DNA of 57,676 nucleotides, taken from the IMG/VR virus record IMGVR_UViG_3300037760_000045, positions 1 through 57,676 of that record, one strand, 5' to 3'. Positions 11,920 to 52,452 of this stretch are shown in pieces; positions within the stretch are counted from its first letter, which is position 1; every line of letters begins with the position of its first letter. The position numbers and the translations under genes are program-made. Below the pieces are notes generated by a model. The model saw nothing but the letters and a program-made list of their open reading frames with translations. It was not told the origin of the DNA and did no database searches. This DNA comes from a virus. Lineage: Duplodnaviria > Caudoviricetes.

Positions 11920-12159
11920 ATGTGGACTACAGCATTCTGGAAGGCTGCAGCTGAGCGGGCGTTTAAGTCTGCTGCGCAAGCGGTCATCCTCTTCTGGGCA
12001 GTAGCGGACGAGATGTTCAATCTTCTCGACATCAACCTGTCCGAGACGTTAGGTATCGCAGCTGGAGGTTTCGTATTGTCGATCTTGAGTTCGGTCGCAT
12101 CTGGAACCATCACCTCCACCCCTGGACCTTCTCTCACAGACGCTGAGCGGACAGGGTAA
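11920..12159 (+). CDS. Holin (r1t-like family)
   Basis: MWTTAFWKAAAERAFKSAAQA start, two TM segments, LSILSSVAS...GPSL. Confidence 0.85.
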   Translation: MWTTAFWKAAAERAFKSAAQAVILFWAVADEMFNLLDINLSETLGIAAGGFVLSILSSVASGTITSTPGPSLTDAERTG

Positions 12160-12260: not shown

Positions 12261-12291
12261 GCAGGATGCCAATAGGAAGCTCTAGGTTTGT

Positions 12292-12356
12292 TCCTAACGG
12301 CCAAAGATACCATTCTGGTACTAGGCGACGGGGTACTTTGTGTTTGGCCGTTAGGA
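12292..12356. repeat. Perfect 14-bp inverted repeat with structured spacer
   Basis: TCCTAACGGCCAAA (12292-12305) / TTTGGCCGTTAGGA (12343-12356). Confidence 0.8.
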
Positions 12357-12404
12357 GATAAATACACTGGTAAGAGGCTTGCCAAAACGATCTTGAAAGA
12401 CGAT

Positions 12405-12433
12405 TAGCCAAAATCTGGAAAGTGGTACAAGCT
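12405..12433 (+). promoter_or_regulatory. Putative promoter TAGCCA-N17-CAAGCT giving a leaderless mRNA at ATG 12440
   Basis: Shares TAGCCA...TCT.G.AAGTGG with 13063-13091; ATG lies 6 nt after the -10 box; no SD. Confidence 0.5.
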
Positions 12434-12439
12434 TGCGAT

Positions 12440-13036
12440 ATGGCTTACTACGAGGTTGAGGTACCGGGGAAGTTCCTACCTGGAATTACCCTGTTGGATC
12501 TAGAGACCGTGAAGGTTCCGATCCACGGTGGATTTGAGATGGCCAACGGCGAGATGCTACGTAAGCGTTGGTCGATTGCTATGGCGGGAATCGCTCGCGA
12601 TGGGCGAGTCGTGATTATCGATACTGAGGGTGATGAGTCCGAAGGGCTACGCGATCTTGGTGTTGAGCTTGAGGGAGCGACTGAGGTTGTTTACGGCGCT
12701 ACCCGTGAGTTCGATGAGATGATCTGTAAGGGTCAGTTCACGAACGCGCGACGTGCCCACGCCACCCACCCCTTCTTTCCTGCCGTCCCTGGAGCGGAAG
12801 ATCTTGAGTGGCGGAACGTCAAAGATGCCCACCAGTATGATCGTCTCCCTGATGTCCCGAGTCGCGATATCGCCTTTGGTGCGTTGACCGATGGCCGATG
12901 GGATCTTGTAATGATCCACCTGCTACGGGACGTTGCCGAATTGATCCTGATGGCTGGTGAACCCGATGGCGAGTGCGAGGCCTGGTGCCTACGGGTGCTA
13001 GCTGAAGAGGACTTCGCGAGCAACGCGCTCGCGTAG
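12440..13036 (+). CDS. Putative DEDD / RNase H-fold 3'-5' exonuclease-like protein
   Basis: LLDLET, REFD and HLLRD in the order and spacing of ExoI/II/III motifs; overall similarity not verified. Confidence 0.45.
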   Translation: MAYYEVEVPGKFLPGITLLDLETVKVPIHGGFEMANGEMLRKRWSIAMAGIARDGRVVIIDTEGDESEGLRDLGVELEGATEVVYGATREFDEMICKGQFTNARRAHATHPFFPAVPGAEDLEWRNVKDAHQYDRLPDVPSRDIAFGALTDGRWDLVMIHLLRDVAELILMAGEPDGECEAWCLRVLAEEDFASNALA

Positions 13037-13062
13037 GCGCGAAAAATAATTCCAATTTCAGG

Positions 13063-13091
13063 TAGCCATTTTCTAGCAAGTGGCGTAGCTT
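13063..13091 (+). promoter_or_regulatory. Putative early promoter TAGCCA-N17-TAGCTT with AT-rich upstream element
   Basis: TANNNT -10 box, 17-bp spacer, AAAAATAATT upstream; sits at the head of the early region. Confidence 0.55.
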
Positions 13092-13099
13092 TGGTTTTG

Positions 13100-13391
13100 T
13101 AAGCGAGAACGACAACTCCACAGAGATCGCAGGAGCTACCAAGTTCCCGTTACCGGCGAGGCTAATCGCAGACCGGGACGCCGCGAGTGCCGGATACCCG
13201 ATAAGGGTCTGGCCGACGACCTAGAATTAGATCGTGCGTGAGCGTAGGACGGGAGACCGGGAATGACGCGAAGGATGGGAACGACGCGAACGATGAAGCG
13301 TGGAGTTGCGGGGTCCGAATCCCCACCATCTACTAGGGCCAGGGTGATCATAAGTCGCATGACGTTCTGCGCAGAGAACCCTGGCCCATTT
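13100..13391 (+). ncRNA. Candidate structured RNA or long structured leader
   Basis: Nested stems 13113-13121/13300-13308 and 13143-13150/13275-13282, internal hairpins, T-loop-like GGGGTCCGAATCCCC-ACCA, then a 10-bp closed three-way junction 13336-13387. Confidence 0.55.
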
Positions 13392-13424
13392 TACCAGCCG
13401 AAAGAATTCCAATTAGGAGGAACC

Positions 13425-13571
13425 ATGAAGGTTACCGTCTTAACCCGCGAGGGTGAAGTTGCCTATAGCGGGGAGATTGTTTGGGCGAACGAGACTCACG
13501 TTGGAGTCGAGAATTCGGCTACCGGTGAAGTCCACAGTGTCCCATTGACCGCTATTAAGCGTCAGCATTAA
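13425..13571 (+). CDS. Small hypothetical protein (48 aa, beta-rich)
   Basis: AGGAGG RBS before ATG 13425; the longer upstream extension lacks an RBS. Confidence 0.65.
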   Translation: MKVTVLTREGEVAYSGEIVWANETHVGVENSATGEVHSVPLTAIKRQH

Positions 13572-13587
13572 TTAAGAGGAGGAAGCC

Positions 13588-14004
13588 ATGATCAAGTTCC
13601 ATCAAGTCGCTTGCGAGAACTGCGGCGAGGAGCGTAACTGCCAAGATATTAAGGGCAAGAAGATCTGCCTCCACTGCGAAGAGGCCGGGAAGGTGACTTG
13701 GATCGTCGGTAGCTCATTTGCCCCCGCATACAACCAGCCAACCTTGACCAAGGCGCTACACGCGGTGATCGAGGACATCGAGGTTGAGGCCGACGCGTTC
13801 GACGAGATAGCTCGGAATTCCCGGATGGTTAGGATCGGCCCAAACTACAACGAGGCTGCTTCCGCTTTGCGCCGGATGGTCTCTCAGGCCGAACGCGACA
13901 ATGACGATCAAGACCAGAATCGGGGCGTTCCGCACTACACCTACACCTTCGAGGGTAACGCCTCTGTCGGGCAGGTCTCTTTCTGGGTCAAGCCAGAGAA
14001 CTGA
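13588..14004 (+). CDS. Hypothetical protein with N-terminal Zn-finger
   Basis: GAGGAGG RBS; CENC...CLHC. Confidence 0.7.
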   Translation: MIKFHQVACENCGEERNCQDIKGKKICLHCEEAGKVTWIVGSSFAPAYNQPTLTKALHAVIEDIEVEADAFDEIARNSRMVRIGPNYNEAASALRRMVSQAERDNDDQDQNRGVPHYTYTFEGNASVGQVSFWVKPEN

Positions 14005-14013
14005 TAGAACGTC

Positions 14014-14053
14014 GCCCAGGGAGAGTGCAGGTTTGAATCCCGTCTCCCTGGGC
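14014..14053 (+). other. Intergenic hairpin with a T-loop-like apex
   Basis: GCCCAGGGAGA / TCTCCCTGGGC stem enclosing GCAGG-TTTGAAT-CCCG. Confidence 0.55.
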
Positions 14054-14086
14054 TGGCATTACTGGATCGGTTAAGAGGAGGATCAG

Positions 14087-14263
14087 TTGACTGCGAGAAA
14101 ACAGATCATCAGAACGATGGTCGATCAGACTTTGGACGCCAGCGGCGATGACGCAAACATTGTGGATCTCGCGTCTAGCATCATCCTGGATCTGGCCCTT
14201 CTCCTAGAGGAGCCGGACCCACGGAAGATCGTTATGAGGAGGAAGTGGAATCGTGGAAGATAA
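14087..14263 (+). CDS. Hypothetical protein (58 aa)
   Basis: GAGGAGG RBS, TTG start, MTARKQIIRTMVDQ...; overlaps the next start. Confidence 0.55.
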   Translation: MTARKQIIRTMVDQTLDASGDDANIVDLASSIILDLALLLEEPDPRKIVMRRKWNRGR

Positions 14264-14990
14264 GCGAATCGAAACTATCCAGAAGCTTCTGCGCAAGGCG
14301 AATGGCGCCGCGACTCCCGCAGAAGCTGACGCCTATTTCGACAAGGCACAAGATCTCATGGTCAAGTGGGAGATCGAAGAGGCCATGCTCTTCGCAGCTG
14401 GCGAGAGCAAAGACGAGATCGTCCAGGATGCAGTCTTAGTGGCTCGTTCCGGTTACTTTGCGTCGATGCTCCAGTTGCTCTATGTCATCGGTAAGGCGAA
14501 TAACGTTCGCGTCCTGAAGCGTCCGCCCTCTTCCTGGAAAAAGGAGGCAGGCGCAACGCTAGTCGGATGGAAGAACGACATTGAGCGAGTGAAGATGCTA
14601 TACGCTTCGCTCCTTATTCAGGTTGGCCGTGAGCGTAAGAAAGAGATGCGCGCTGATTACATAAGGGCGATGACTCCATCCAGCCGCGCGATCTGGGTTA
14701 ACTCGTTCTCGATGAGTTTCGCCGTTCGGATTGGCCAGCGACTTCAGGAGCAGCGGGCGCGAACGCTCAAGACCGCAGGTGACGCGGACTCAACAGGTTC
14801 CATGCTTCCCGCAGTCGTCGATCGCGAAGAGCAGGTCAAGAACTTTATGAACGGCGTGCCGACGACTAAGACCAGGAGCAGTGGACGCAAGACGGATTTT
14901 GCAGCCTGGGAGCAAGGAGCTAACGCTGCGGATCGCGCCGACATCGGCAACACTCGGATCGGCGATACTAAGAAGCGGCTGAACCGCTAG
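14253..14990 (+). CDS. DUF2786-domain protein
   Basis: N-terminal IQKLLRKA...TPAEADAYFDKAQDLMVKW signature; C-terminal GANAADRADIG. Confidence 0.8.
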   Translation: MEDKRIETIQKLLRKANGAATPAEADAYFDKAQDLMVKWEIEEAMLFAAGESKDEIVQDAVLVARSGYFASMLQLLYVIGKANNVRVLKRPPSSWKKEAGATLVGWKNDIERVKMLYASLLIQVGRERKKEMRADYIRAMTPSSRAIWVNSFSMSFAVRIGQRLQEQRARTLKTAGDADSTGSMLPAVVDREEQVKNFMNGVPTTKTRSSGRKTDFAAWEQGANAADRADIGNTRIGDTKKRLNR

Positions 14991-21643: not shown

Positions 21644-21802
21644 CCTCTCCAGCCCGAGGTTTGCCCGAGACGGCCTAACGGGGCCGTCCGGGACTCGGGT
21701 ACCAGGATGAAATCTAAGGGCTTAGAGACGCGCCTAGGGCTTCAGCCGCTAGGATAGGCCGGACCGGACGCCTTTCAGGCTAGTAGGGGAAATGAGGAGG
21801 GC
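21644..21802 (+). ncRNA. Candidate structured RNA / multi-hairpin element
   Basis: Hairpins 21652-21700, 21713-21726, 21733-21753 and 21770-21780 in an ORF-free gap. Confidence 0.45.
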
Positions 21803-21805
21803 TTT

Positions 21806-21942
21806 TAGATGTTCATAGATGTTTGGATAGGTGTTAGCAAGATCCCAGATAGATGTTAATAGATGTTTCACCCTTAGCACAAACATCTATAACACCTTTA
21901 AAAGATCTTGTTAACATCTATCCAAACACCTATAAACATCTA
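21806..21942. repeat. Palindromic octamer array 1 (5x TAGRTGTT then 5x AACAYCTA), candidate replication origin
   Basis: Forward copies at 21806, 21816, 21828, 21850, 21860; reverse copies at 21882, 21891 (degenerate), 21913, 21925, 21935; AT-rich; upstream of the primase-helicase gene. Confidence 0.85.
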
Positions 21943-22016
21943 TCTCTCTTATTTTCTGACTAGAGTGTTATAGGGGTAGTACGGGCGGTAATTAGAATTA
22001 CTAGCCGGAGGTGCAT

Positions 22017-41148: not shown

Positions 41149-41578
41149 TGAACGGGGTCTCACGGGCTAAAAGCGGCTCACGGGTGTGGTTCCTGTGTAC
41201 CGGTTTTGTGGCGCTCTATGGCAGAAGTGGCCTAATTGTCTCTGAAAAATGCGCGGGAAGCGTGCTTTGCACGCTGGTTCCTGAGCTGAAACCGCTCTTT
41301 ATTCCTGTCGCTGAGGAGGTAATTCTGCATGCGAAATGGGGTGATGCTGTGTCATGGCAACTGCGAAGCGAGGAAAATTCTGGCTTTGAGGTGTTCTCGA
41401 ATTGCAGAATTCTGGTGCCGATGGGTGGCGTTTTTGAGGTTGATTTCATGCCCGCGCTCGATCGAATTATTCAGTAGGGAGGGCGAAATTTCTAGGAATG
41501 GTTTTCCGACCAGGGGAAACGTAGAAAAAGAGCCGCCCCCGCCCGGTCGGGGAGGGCGTAGTAAGAAAAACGTGGATA

Positions 41579-41722
41579 TAGGTGTTTAAGATGTTTGGAT
41601 AGATGTTTCGACTTCTCAGATAGGTGTTTATAGGTGTTTCGCTGTATTACAAACATCTATAACACCTATCAGAATGCAATTAAACATCTATTCAAACACA
41701 CACAAACATCTATCAATATCTA
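41579..41722. repeat. Palindromic octamer array 2, same architecture as array 1
   Basis: Forward copies at 41579, 41588 (degenerate), 41600, 41621, 41631; reverse copies at 41652, 41661, 41683, 41695 (degenerate), 41705, plus a weak sixth at 41715. Confidence 0.85.
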
Positions 41723-41848
41723 TATCTCTCTTTTTTGTGCCTAGAGTTAGTAGTAGTAGAGGGCGGCTCTTAACGTATACGCGTACGCGAGACTCACAAT
41801 TGTCTGCAATTTGAGTGAGTTCAAAGCCTGATTGAGAGGAGATTGAAA

Positions 41849-50054: not shown

Positions 50055-51118
50055 TGGCTGTCAATGAGGAGACGATCAGGTACAGCAATGGGCTACGCCT
50101 GACCATTGATGAAATCGTAGACACGCAGACTGCCGATATCGCGAGGGCGTGGGGCCAGACGTGGGATGATCTACGGGGCGACTGGGAGAGATCTTTAGCA
50201 GATCTGACGAGCGGAGAGCGTTGGCCGAGTCAGACTCAGATCAGACGTTCCCGCCGCACCTTGGCCGTGCTCCAGGAGACGGAGAAGGCCCTCAACCGGC
50301 TTACCAGCAATGGGACTATCCGGATCAATCAGGATGTGAGCCGGGCTGTCGATGATGCCGAGAGGTTTAACCGGCTCATGATGGCATCGCAATACCCCGA
50401 TAGCGCGAAACGAAGAGCAGGCGGAACAGCGGGATTGAGTGCTACCTTCAACCAGGTAGATGGACGTGCTCTCGCGACGATTGTGGAGCGAACTACCGGC
50501 AGCGTGACAAGGCTCGCACGGTCGATTAGTGCAGATGCTTATGGGATAATTCTGAGCCAGCTGCGGACGGGCATAGCGATTGGGGATAACCCACGGACGG
50601 CTGCGAGTAAGATGCTGAGCCGGATCCAGGGTGGATTTACCCATGGACGATATCGGCTTGACAACATCGCCAGGACGGAGATGCTGGACGCTAACCGTGC
50701 ATCGTCTATGGCGTCGATGCGGGCTAATGAAGACATCCTGGAAGGCTGGCAGTGGCTCGCTGAGCTGGATGATCGGACTTGTCCATCGTGCTGGAGTAAA
50801 CACGGCGAGGTATTCCCGATGACTATTCCCGGGCCAGACGATCATCAGCAGGGGCGCTGTACGTCCCTGCCCGCGACCAGGAGCTGGAAGGATTTGGGCT
50901 TTGAGGATATCGATGAGCCTGAATCGATATTGCCTAATGCAGAAGACACATTCAATGCCCTTCCGGATAGCAGTAAATTGGAAATAATGGGACCGGGTAG
51001 ACTTTCGCTATTGAACAGTGGAGATGTGTCTTGGTCTGACTTGTCTACATTCCGGCTAAATCCTGATTGGAGAGGGAGTTATGTACCAACTCCAGTATCT
51101 GCATTGGGGGTCGGGTAA
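50054..51118 (+). CDS. MuF-like minor head protein
   Basis: IARTE, WQWLAELDDRTCPSCWSKHG, HQQGRC. Confidence 0.88.
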   Translation: MAVNEETIRYSNGLRLTIDEIVDTQTADIARAWGQTWDDLRGDWERSLADLTSGERWPSQTQIRRSRRTLAVLQETEKALNRLTSNGTIRINQDVSRAVDDAERFNRLMMASQYPDSAKRRAGGTAGLSATFNQVDGRALATIVERTTGSVTRLARSISADAYGIILSQLRTGIAIGDNPRTAASKMLSRIQGGFTHGRYRLDNIARTEMLDANRASSMASMRANEDILEGWQWLAELDDRTCPSCWSKHGEVFPMTIPGPDDHQQGRCTSLPATRSWKDLGFEDIDEPESILPNAEDTFNALPDSSKLEIMGPGRLSLLNSGDVSWSDLSTFRLNPDWRGSYVPTPVSALGVG

Positions 51119-52452
51119 TGTCTACAACGCTTGCTGAGAGTGGCAGGCTGGTCGAGAACATTGCGGAAGTATCCTCGCAGCGGGTAAAGATCCGTCTCAT
51201 TGAAGGTGAACGCTGGGGGTCTTCTGGGTATTACAGTGCGGAGATGCTAAAGCGGGATGGCCCAACGGCTTTCCCAGCAGGTACACAGATGTATCTTGAC
51301 CACCCCTCCTTTACAGAGGAACAGGACCGTCCAGAGCGCTCAGTTAGAGATCTCGCTGGTGTACTCATTACAGAGGCGAAGTGGGAGAAGGATGGCCTGT
51401 ACTCTGAGATCCGTATCTATGAGCACTGGGCCCTTGTGATTAAGGAGCTGGCTGAAGATATCGGCATCTCTGTGCGGGCCATGGGCGAGGCTGAACAAGG
51501 TGAGCAGGGTGGACGTTCCGGCCCAATCATCACCAAGATCACAGAGGGGATATCTGTTGACTTTGTGACCAAAGCTGGAGCAGGCGGGAAGATTGTGAGC
51601 CTGATCGAGTCTGCGAGGAAGCATACAATGCCTGATGATTTCAAGAATGCCAGGCCTCTTATCCGGGAGGCAACCTCCGATGACAGAAGGCAGCAACTCA
51701 ATTCCGCCGTAAAATCTGCCTATGGCGCTGAAGATACCTACATCTGGGTACAGGACTTTGATATGGACGATGAGGTCGTCTACTTCTCAGTCCACTCAGA
51801 AGACCTATCTAAAGTCTATGGCCAATCCTATGAAGTCGCGTCTGACGATCTCTCCGTGAATCTAACGGGGGGCCGGTACGAGGTCAGGCAGCGAACCCAA
51901 TACGTACCAGTATCCACACCACAAACTGTTACTGAAAAGACCGAGAGCAAGAAAGCTGATTCACCTGCCACTAAGGAGGCAGCAATGGGTGAAGTCACGA
52001 TCGACGAGCGAGAGCTCACTACTTTGCGCGAATCTGCCGGTAAGGTGGAGGAGTTGCAAGAAAGCCTCAAGGAGTCTCAGAAGGAGACCGTAGAGGCACA
52101 GAAGATTGCCACGCGGGAGTCGATGCGAGCGAACCGGCAGCACGCCCGCCGGATTGTTGCAGAAGAGCTGCAAGAGGCCAAGATCAAGGCTCCAGCCCTG
52201 GCGAAGTCCCTGAGCGTTGACCCTCCGATCTTGGAGGAAGACGACAAGGACGGCAACAAGGCTGGAAGCGTCAACGAGGCTGAACTGCGGAAGACCGTCA
52301 AAGAGGCTATCGCTGAGATCCAGGTTGAGGTCGATGAAAGCAGCGGCGGTGTTCGCGGATTCGGGCCAGGCTCTGAAGAGAAGGAATTCAAAGAGTCGGA
52401 CTTTGATGACATGAGCGCGACAATCTTCGGACGCAAGAAGGTTGGTGCCTGA
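51118..52452 (+). CDS. Capsid maturation protease / scaffold fusion
   Basis: MYLDHP, RSVRDLAG, IGISV, SVDFVTKAGAGG; coiled-coil C-half. Confidence 0.85.
   Translation: MSTTLAESGRLVENIAEVSSQRVKIRLIEGERWGSSGYYSAEMLKRDGPTAFPAGTQMYLDHPSFTEEQDRPERSVRDLAGVLITEAKWEKDGLYSEIRIYEHWALVIKELAEDIGISVRAMGEAEQGEQGGRSGPIITKITEGISVDFVTKAGAGGKIVSLIESARKHTMPDDFKNARPLIREATSDDRRQQLNSAVKSAYGAEDTYIWVQDFDMDDEVVYFSVHSEDLSKVYGQSYEVASDDLSVNLTGGRYEVRQRTQYVPVSTPQTVTEKTESKKADSPATKEAAMGEVTIDERELTTLRESAGKVEELQESLKESQKETVEAQKIATRESMRANRQHARRIVAEELQEAKIKAPALAKSLSVDPPILEEDDKDGNKAGSVNEAELRKTVKEAIAEIQVEVDESSGGVRGFGPGSEEKEFKESDFDDMSATIFGRKKVGA

Follow-up and report, generated by a model that had tools for sequence, protein, structure and literature searches.

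A candidate early leader RNA with a minimal tRNA-like module in an uncultured actinophage-like virus

Introduction

The closest described parallel to the element analysed here comes from Cluster A mycobacteriophages. In L5, D29 and StarStuff, the early promoter Pleft produces an abundant, stable non-coding RNA of about 500 nt, as set out in the available text of Dedrick et al. 2017 (PMC5712189). According to the same text, about 90% of the L5 Pleft transcripts end at 51,140-51,190, before gene 89, by a mechanism termed 'unclear'; transcript levels drop by more than 90% from the leader RNA to the downstream genes; the authors report no canonical terminator; and the left part of the region resisted deletion (51,195-51,407). 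For D29, a 2025 preprint (10.1101/2025.11.21.689395) reports in its available text that RNA peaks sharply 'immediately upstream of gene 89'. We studied a virus record of 57,676 bp (IMG/VR IMGVR_UViG_3300037760_000045, Caudoviricetes), the whole of which we call the window. A first-pass annotation had proposed that its positions 13100-13391 encode a structured early RNA with tRNA-like features. We read this element as an early L5-type RNA, either a leader or a small RNA, that carries a minimal tRNA-like module and a terminator-like hairpin, a reading that we hold with about even confidence.

Results

A non-coding gap holds a conserved putative early promoter and leader

The element lies in a gap of 388 nt (13037-13424) that is non-coding: strains differ in it by frame-breaking indels, codon periodicity is absent, and tblastx gives no match at E < 0.1. 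The tblastx search against related loci and the rest of the genome revealed no gene remnant in the gap (best E 0.12). We also considered a coding reading, in which a 102-aa open reading frame (ORF; 13263-13571) extends in frame into the 48-aa ORF that follows the gap. Its third codon positions hold only 3 of 14 strain substitutions, and four single-base indels after 13375 total -2; the indels and the lack of third-position bias rule it out. In ORF 14087-14263, taken for comparison, third positions take 12 of 15 strain changes. The gap interrupts a series of otherwise closely packed genes, all on the plus strand, and separates a conserved 204-aa gene (12422-13036), itself downstream of the lysis module, from the early and replication genes.

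The promoter proposed by the first-pass annotation partly stood up to analysis: both hexamers are in place and the -10 and start motif is conserved, although a scan for E. coli-type promoters left 13063-13091 uncalled. We compared the region with loci that carry the 204-aa gene (3 viral and 36 metagenome loci, 31-60% amino-acid identity). The gap itself could be surveyed in 35 of these 39 loci, the other four being dropped where the contig ends inside or at the gene. The next gene usually starts 0-100 nt after the 204-aa gene. The motif TAnnnT-N6-10-GTA(A/G)G is found at most 200 nt after this gene in 9 of the 35 relatives, and it has 10 matches on the entire 57.7-kb plus strand of the window. 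A longer form, GTGGCGTAG-N8-TTGTAAG, occurs once in the window and is identical in the relative L004. The two loci have GTGGCGTAG-N8-TTGTAAG(G)CGAG..CGACAA in common, after which L004 proceeds at once to its ribosome-binding site (RBS), so that the leader of the window appears as an insert placed after a conserved transcript start. Relatives with the promoter and start motif are distant and lack the insert. Taken by their sequences, these loci have a putative early promoter in common that is conserved among relatives.

ARAGORN found no tRNA or transfer-messenger RNA (tmRNA) gene in the window, and Rfam gave no match at the gathering score over its whole length. At E ≤ 10, Rfam returned only snoRNA sR15 on 12900-13600 (E 6.1) and only sR55 on 13255-13345 (E 7.8), both taken as chance; no tRNA model appeared in the latter. 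The absence of a recognisable family, as first proposed, thus agrees with the Rfam and ARAGORN scans. Together with the non-coding gap and the conserved promoter, it leaves an early non-coding RNA behind its own promoter as the best reading of the locus. Three other candidates were rejected: a tmRNA-like RNA, for which the acceptor stem formed from the RNA ends is absent; group I or II introns and small ribozymes, which gave no Rfam match; and a tRNA 3' half serving as attP core, given that no integrase was seen among the scanned ORFs, that the genes lie on one strand and that the genome has direct terminal repeats.

The Cluster A Pleft RNA ends in a tRNA-like cloverleaf

At the end of the Cluster A Pleft non-coding RNA lies a conserved, strongly covarying cloverleaf of tRNA-like shape, made up of a 6-bp acceptor stem, D-like and variable arms, and a T-arm whose UUCGAUU loop is invariant; in L5, this canonical T-arm is on the transcribed strand at the 3' end of the Pleft RNA, and the cloverleaf overlaps the undeletable region 51,195-51,407. 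The D29 cloverleaf sits at the position of the RNA peak described above, its end 47 nt before the ORF. An alignment of 15 phages supports the fold with 12 compensatory pairs. In a subset of 14 sequences, used for the covariation score, the fold has 33 pairs, 99.1% of the cells are paired and 14 pairs have changed on both sides. The score of 0.361 compares with 0.141 ± 0.014 after shuffling (reached in 0 of 500 cases) and with a maximum of 0.107 for slid partners. Matches to the segment occur in 86 Cluster A phage records, and in most of these the match starts at about the start of the cloverleaf. On L5, Rfam returned only a sub-threshold tRNA-Sec match (51,228-51,133, 22.1 bits, E 0.15), and ARAGORN found nothing on the L5 segment. 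The term 'tRNA-like' does not occur in PMC5712189, and among the papers listed as matches to our literature search, judged in part by title and start of abstract, none ties the Pleft RNA to a tRNA-like fold.

A candidate minimal tRNA-like module in the window

We built a covariance model, R1, from 14 of the 15 Cluster A cloverleaf sequences that we had fetched; it is not a curated family, and its E-values are rough by construction. Searching both strands of the window with filters off, we found the best match at 13271-13335 on the plus strand, with 21.1 bits and an E-value of 0.003-0.006 on this rough calibration; the runner-up reached 10.9 bits. In control searches, a single match in 526 kb of tRNA-rich phage DNA reached 21.1 bits or more, the scores of real tRNAs there going as high as 29.7 bits, and no match in 152 kb of related loci did so. 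The match to the window is suggestive: it hints at kinship with the Cluster A module and falls short of proof of membership.

The matched segment describes a three-armed module of 59 nt (13273-13331), and RNAfold of 13268-13336 in isolation yields the same fold. The first-pass annotation had suggested an early non-coding RNA or a tRNA mimic here, with a tRNA-like T-loop hairpin followed by ACCA. The motif GGGG-TCCGAAT-CCCC-ACCA is indeed present at 13310-13328, and the hairpin aligns as the T-arm of the R1 module. A tRNA mimic finds support only in a register other than the one first drawn: ACCA (13325-13328) directly follows the T-stem, and in the R1 alignment it supplies one unpaired A and the start of CCAUCU, which makes it internal and not a 3' CCA end. 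The acceptor-like stem carries no discriminator and CCA at its 3' end; the trailer after it is ACUA. Judged as a tRNA, the module departs from the norm in having three arms, a 6-bp acceptor-like stem, an unpaired A before the 3' strand of that stem, and no 7-nt anticodon loop. A relaxed T-arm pattern finds six such hairpins on the plus strand of the window.

The relative L085 (48% amino-acid identity) has a leader of 341 nt at the same position, with a folding z-score of -5.98. Within it, a strongly folded cloverleaf at 2186-2295 (z -3.52) combines an 11-bp closing stem with three hairpins. The third of these, GGCAGG-UUGGAUU-CCUGCC, is T-arm-like and abuts the 3' strand of the closing stem, with ACCC next; a long hairpin with a 15-bp stem (2310-2395) comes after the cloverleaf. 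The L085 cloverleaf cannot be aligned with the element of the window, has no sequence similarity to it and has no other copy in the viral collection. R1, searched with its filters on, missed it.

These observations bear on a reading in which the T-arm-like hairpin and its neighbours are a decaying tRNA or tRNA-like gene and the rest is an ordinary long 5' untranslated region (UTR) with a hairpin, involving neither tRNA mimicry nor a trans-acting RNA. In line with it, a real tRNA-Ile(gat) (2285-2358) is embedded in the early region of the relative L082, directly before an RBS and start codon. The missing anticodon arm, the empty ARAGORN and Rfam tRNA results even on the 91-nt stretch alone, an unfavourable folding energy, a C at position 55 of the T-loop, two of seven T-loop positions differing from the sister strain, and the lack of anything comparable in 37 of the 39 related loci would all fit decay. 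A decaying gene accounts poorly, however, for the substitution pattern between strains described below, for an R1 score surpassed by a single match in the tRNA-rich control, and for the tRNA-like cloverleaves that both Cluster A and L085 hold at the same transcriptional position. A dead spacer of 325 nt would also be out of the ordinary where most genes abut or overlap, as they do in this genome. We consider the relic unlikely.

Variation between strains is compatible with RNA structure

Contigs from two other metagenome runs gave us the element in one variant strain, about 7-9% divergent. The first piece differs by 17 substitutions and 1 gap over 13146-13372 and the second by 19 substitutions and 4 gaps over 13228-13427. 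Overall, the variant retains the entire element; 19 substitutions and 5 single-base indels separate it from the window over 13146-13424, and the least divergent segment is 13146-13272, with 5 substitutions in 127 nt. This variation is compatible with RNA structure. Twelve of the 19 substitutions fall at positions unpaired in the minimum free energy (MFE) structure. Among the seven at paired positions, two make up one compensatory pair, three preserve wobble pairing and two disrupt a pair; one of the disruptions (13308 G>A) hits the terminal pair of the 9-bp long-range helix, whose partner base is not covered in the variant. In the hairpin 13216-13235, 13220 C>T turns a C.A mismatch into a U-A pair.

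In the 3' hairpin, G13343-C13380 is replaced by A-U in a compensatory change, U13345-A13378 by U-G, and 13377 A>C creates an extra G-C pair. Such wobble-keeping changes fit only an RNA of the plus strand, and neither the minus strand nor a DNA cruciform. When the MFE structure is threaded on the variant, it is retained better than after random placement of the same changes (p 0.05), and the variant's own MFE lies below that of 98% of random placements (p 0.02). For the 3' hairpin alone, p is 0.024-0.035; the combination of no broken stem pair and at least one compensatory change has a chance of 0.035.

All six substitutions in 13273-13335 keep pairs of the module fold or fall in its loops. The T-loop of the window has U-C-C-G-A at positions 54-58, and that of the sister strain has the canonical U-U-C-A-A: TCCGAAT becomes TTCAAAT, and the nearby 13323 C>U retains a G-U pair. 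The canonical loop of the variant supports an ancestry of the hairpin as a T-arm.

The 3' hairpin is the outstanding fold of the element

The GC-rich hairpin that closes the element is its only locally outstanding fold, with -28.4 kcal/mol, z -4.63, 1 of 200 shuffles as good and a pair probability of about 1.0. It is followed by A-UUUU-A. A terminator scan covering loops of 3-8 nt did not list 13336-13392, because the loop is longer than 8 nt. To judge from its sequence, the hairpin is terminator-like or a stabiliser of the 3' end. The first-pass annotation had drawn a three-way junction here; the closing repeat GGGCCAGGGT/ACCCTGGCCC is present, and RNAfold instead predicts one long imperfect hairpin.

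Two similar hairpins with long perfect stems occur elsewhere in the window, at 12291-12357 after the holin gene (z -3.35) and at 14011-14057 after a 138-aa gene (z -3.64). These two are probably terminators of this phage. The latter carries GGTTTGAATCC in its loop, with a 9-bit R1 match.

All of the helices first proposed for the leader were recovered, at their original positions or no more than one base away: the closing helix CAACTCCAC/GTGGAGTTG, with ensemble pair probabilities of 0.95-0.99, the nested helix GTTCCCGT/ATGGGAAC, and the hairpins ACCC-GATAA-GGGT (13196-13208), 13216-13235 and CGG-GAGA-CCG. The 292-nt stretch folds better than all of 200 dinucleotide shuffles (z -2.45), and its minus strand has z -1.34, with 22 of 200 shuffles as good. 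Within it, the inner domain has z -1.85 (4 of 200 shuffles fold as well) and the region of the T-arm-like hairpin z -1.63 locally.

The module is mutually exclusive with both long-range helices, and forcing its fold costs 3.6 kcal/mol relative to the MFE. In addition, GTTCCC (13143-13148) can pair with either copy of a tandem 18-nt repeat, at whose junction lies the 5' strand of the acceptor-like stem. This suggests a further alternative, a cis-acting attenuator or switch: the leader would toggle between the long-range and the tRNA-like fold, or answer a phage or host factor, and thereby set early-gene expression past 13336-13392. The two exclusive folds, the two alternative partners for GTTCCC, the strong hairpin and U-run just upstream of the RBS, and the fall in transcripts of more than 90% after the L5 leader RNA in the available text of PMC5712189 are all in line with it. 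On the other side, no riboswitch, T-box or leader family matches, a ligand or factor is not identifiable, and alternative pairings are common in almost any GC-rich 300-mer. Translational control is also not evident, as the hairpin is clear of the RBS. A switch seems to us improbable.

Evidence against an L5-like leader RNA

Several observations weigh against reading the element as an L5-like leader RNA with a tRNA-like module. The first concern folding. After regression on GC content, the folding energy of the element is -0.06 standard deviations from expectation (rank 433 of 957 overlapping 292-nt genome windows), and z ≤ -2.38 is reached by 4 of 22 random genome windows. The first-pass annotation had made a folding energy better than controls a test of its proposal; the element beats dinucleotide shuffles but only equals the background of its own genome. 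Folded alone, the module has a z-score of only -0.87, and within the leader its predicted occupancy is 0.6%, the rival 9-bp helix having a probability of at least 0.95. The U-run behind the 3' hairpin consists of only 4 U.

Other points concern the module and its relation to Cluster A. R1 scores 19.0 bits inside a coding region of L085; noise thus reaches that level and 21 bits is not far above it. Together with the tRNAs that score up to 29.7 bits, this match means that R1 is not family-specific. The alignment of R1 to the window deletes a variable arm of 41 positions, and the closest large relative (G003) gave no R1 match at E ≤ 1. The loop of the window has C where functional T-loops have U55, the Cluster A loop being invariant. 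The T-arm-like hairpin is also the most variable piece between strains, with 3 changes in 15 nt, which means that its loop is not strongly conserved.

The last group concerns conservation and expression. Over the whole element, the single compensatory pair is not significant (p 0.15). No homologue of the element was found in the 39 related loci or the rest of the genome by nhmmer (best E 0.09), blastn or tblastx, and the covariation therefore rests on one variant strain. Among the public sequencing runs listed with the element, none is an RNA run.

Wider searches gave similar results. The positions 12400-14100 had no blastn match among 50,697 phage records. Four patterns were scanned in the viral collection, three of them aimed at the element of the window: the 21-nt pattern of T-arm plus ACCA had no match, the 15-nt T-arm pattern gave 56 loci (mostly tRNAs and an unrelated att-like group; Rfam on six of them found one tRNA), a degenerate 19-nt motif gave 17 loci (tRNAs or an unrelated AT-rich family), and the T-arm pattern of L085 gave 4 unrelated loci. 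A protein-guided search with the 138-aa gene returned no loci, and none were found in genome contigs. In the viral collection, 11 contigs have a conserved non-coding stretch that contains ACCGGGG-TCCGAAT-CCCCCGGT and adjoins a small gene in reverse orientation. The stretch has no relation to the window and resembles an attachment-site or tRNA-like remnant; Rfam found nothing at that stretch in six of the contigs.

Some of this evidence would also suit helices that arose by chance in a scar left by recombination or insertion. The promoter, leader and hairpin are bracketed by a 14-nt direct repeat, AAA(T/G)AATTCCAATT, which may be a footprint of insertion or recombination, or chance. The 357-bp segment between its copies would then be acquired or duplicated filler, with helices that reflect its GC content and not selection. 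The flanking repeat, a folding energy equal to the genome background, the lack of homologues and a strain divergence of about 7% with indels, typical of non-coding DNA, speak for a scar. However, the promoter inside the segment is the ancestral one, common to relatives; the pattern of strain changes favours structure (p 0.02-0.05); and the R1 match stands 10 bits above the rest of the genome. We regard such a scar as very improbable.

Layout of the element and its neighbourhood

The best-supported layout of the locus starts with the early promoter and a 5' domain of several hairpins (about 170 nt), continues with the tRNA-like module and the structure-conserved hairpin with its short U-run, and leads into the early genes (Table 1).

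Table 1. Coordinates of the features of the leader and its flanks in the window, and of the L5 cloverleaf
Feature	Position	Strand	Basis
Putative early promoter: -35-like TAGCCA 13063-13068, 17-nt spacer, -10 TAGCTT 13086-13091	13063-13091	+	sequence
Inferred transcription start and conserved leader start TGTAAGCGAGAACGACAAC	13098-13116	+	aligns with L004 TTGTAAGGCGAGGCGACGACAA and L085 TTGTAGGGCAAAACAAC
Long-range 9-bp helix CAACTCCAC/GTGGAGTTG	13113-13121 with 13300-13308	+	inverted repeat, 100% complementary
Nested helix GTTCCCGT/ATGGGAAC	13143-13150 with 13275-13282	+	sequence, RNAfold
Inner multi-hairpin domain closed by GTTCCCGT/ATGGGAAC; hairpins 13153-13215, 13216-13235, 13250-13259 (GAGA loop)	13143-13282	+	fold
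Tandem 18-nt direct repeat GGGAATGACGCGAAGGAT / GGGAACGACGCGAACGAT	13259-13294	+	89% identity
Candidate minimal tRNA-like module, then trailer ACUA 13332-13335	13273-13335	+	top R1 match
Acceptor-like stem GGAUGG/CCAUCU, 6 bp	13273-13278 with 13326-13331	+	R1 alignment
D-like arm of the module	13280-13307	+	R1 alignment
T-arm-like hairpin GGGG-UCCGAAU-CCCC	13310-13324	+	sequence, R1 alignment
Long GC-rich hairpin, 10-bp perfect stem GGGCCAGGGT/ACCCTGGCCC 13336-13345 with 13378-13387	13336-13392	+	inverted repeat
14-nt direct repeat AAA(T/G)AATTCCAATT	13044-13057 and 13401-13414	+	93% identity, spacing 357
RBS AGGAGG 13415-13420 and first early ORF, 48 aa	ATG 13425, stop ends 13571	+	sequence, ORF list
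L5 cloverleaf (Z18946; L119 locus 436-527)	51,226-51,135 of the record	minus	gene 89 start 51,082

As a virus record the window is complete; it has direct terminal repeats, and its sizeable ORFs are all on the plus strand. Tail, lysis and holin genes extend to 12156 (holin 11920-12156). Early and replication genes start from about 13.4 kb and include DUF2786, DUF6011, an SNF2 helicase, a primase/MCM-like gene and a DnaE-type polymerase. This gene content suggests an actinobacterial host. The 48-aa ORF that opens the early region has the RBS first noted for it, directly ahead of its ATG, and has no Pfam or PHROG family. Inside the element, an exact 9-nt repeat, AGACCGGGA, occurs at 13170-13178 and 13254-13262.

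For the 204-aa protein, neither Pfam nor PHROG gave a match, and a profile search of PDB sequences was empty as well. Its residues D26, E28, D98, H166 and D170 are invariant in 30 homologues. An AlphaFold model (pLDDT 89.7) gave weak Foldseek matches (best E 0.02), most of them to folds of the DEDD 3'-5' exonuclease or RNase H-like type, and the protein may represent a new exonuclease-like family adjoining the early promoter.

Downstream of the element, the two variant contigs together carry 15 changed positions in the 13809-14300 region, 12 of them third-position changes in ORF 14087-14263, a bias which supports that this 58-aa ORF is probably real. A contig of another run equals the window over 13809-14139 and then has 12 differences in 14140-14224; the mosaic, seen in its sequence, indicates probable recombination among co-occurring strains. 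Elsewhere, arrays of ATAGATGTT/ATAGGTGTT-like repeats in both orientations occupy the intergenic regions at about 21800-21950 and 41570-41740. Each array lies upstream of a TAGAGT -10-like hexamer, and no other windows of the genome fold as well. The repeats are likely to be operators or iterons that serve a phage regulator or an origin.

Discussion

A model for the leader

We propose that in this virus, which looks lytic and actinophage-like, transcription from the first early promoter yields about 325 nt of non-coding leader ahead of the first early ORF. A large share of the transcripts would most likely end, or be cut, within this leader. The resulting small RNA, of about 235-295 nt, would run from about 13099 to either the end of the module (about 13331-13335) or the hairpin and its U-run (about 13392), and the early genes would be carried on transcripts that read through. 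Together, the hairpin and the tRNA-like end may define and protect the 3' end, by tRNA-type end processing and by resistance to 3' exonucleases, and may also reduce the expression of the downstream genes. The succession of module and strong hairpin would parallel the Cluster A Pleft RNA.

One can extend this model into a general scheme, which we find rather unlikely in its full form. Unrelated actinophage lineages, here Cluster A, L085 and the window, would end their first RNA with a tRNA-like module that recruits host tRNA enzymes (RNase P, 3' trimming, CCA addition, TruB). The leader would be cut from the early mRNA and stabilised, and lytic growth would depend on the resulting RNA, which might for example act as a tRNA decoy or soak up a host factor. 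In the window, a reduced, three-armed form of the module would compete with a long-range fold and so provide a switch between processed small RNA and read-through mRNA.

Actinophages have been known to make abundant early leader RNAs ever since L5 was studied, and the 3' end formation and role of the L5 RNA are open questions in the available text of PMC5712189. Should a tRNA-like end prove real and general, the L5 question could be put to a direct test, and the window would supply a further, independent case in minimal form, from an uncultured phage of soil or sediment. If the module is only a relic, the locus would be an ordinary long 5' UTR with a terminator-like hairpin.

Comparison with known systems

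The Pleft RNA and the leader of the window are alike in arrangement, in that several hundred non-coding bases separate an early lytic promoter from the first early ORF. The position of the module is also alike: it ends at 13335 in the window, with the ORF at 13425, and the L5 cloverleaf ends at 51,135, with gene 89 at 51,082. The trailer ACUA after the acceptor strand is common to the window and the Cluster A module. The two differ in many other respects. They share no sequence similarity beyond words of 7-8 nt, and the leader of the window, at about 325 nt, is shorter than the L5 RNA of about 500 nt. The window module has no variable arm, its loop is UCCGAAU in place of the invariant UUCGAUU and, unlike the Cluster A module, it has one unpaired A between the T-stem and the acceptor strand. 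In the window a strong hairpin follows the module, whereas the L5 RNA is reported without a canonical terminator in the available text of PMC5712189. Expression, stability, toxicity and a requirement for lytic growth have been demonstrated in L5 alone.

Compared with tRNAs (RF00005/RF01852), the module has a T-arm-like hairpin with equivalents of U54 and A58, a contiguous acceptor-like stem and a cloverleaf-like fold in isolation. It differs from them in the absence of an anticodon arm and of a terminal CCA, in an acceptor stem of 6 bp and in C55.

An actinobacterial precedent for tRNA enzymes processing part of a larger RNA is YrlA of M. smegmatis, a non-coding RNA with a T-arm and an acceptor-like stem in the available text of its description (PMC4201824). 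The window differs from it in giving no Rfam match to YrlA. Among 27 scanned ORFs, none is a Ro60/TROVE gene.

Two further systems combine a longer RNA with part of a tRNA. In tmRNA, the long helix P2a is followed by the T-arm, and the window likewise has a long helix immediately 5' of its T-arm-like hairpin near the 3' end. It differs from tmRNA in lacking an acceptor stem from the RNA ends, a tag reading frame and an ARAGORN match. In the eukaryotic MALAT1/mascRNA system, a downstream tRNA-like fold makes the 3' end of a longer non-coding RNA, with demonstrated cleavage by RNase P. The module of the window is proposed to form a 3' end in a like manner.

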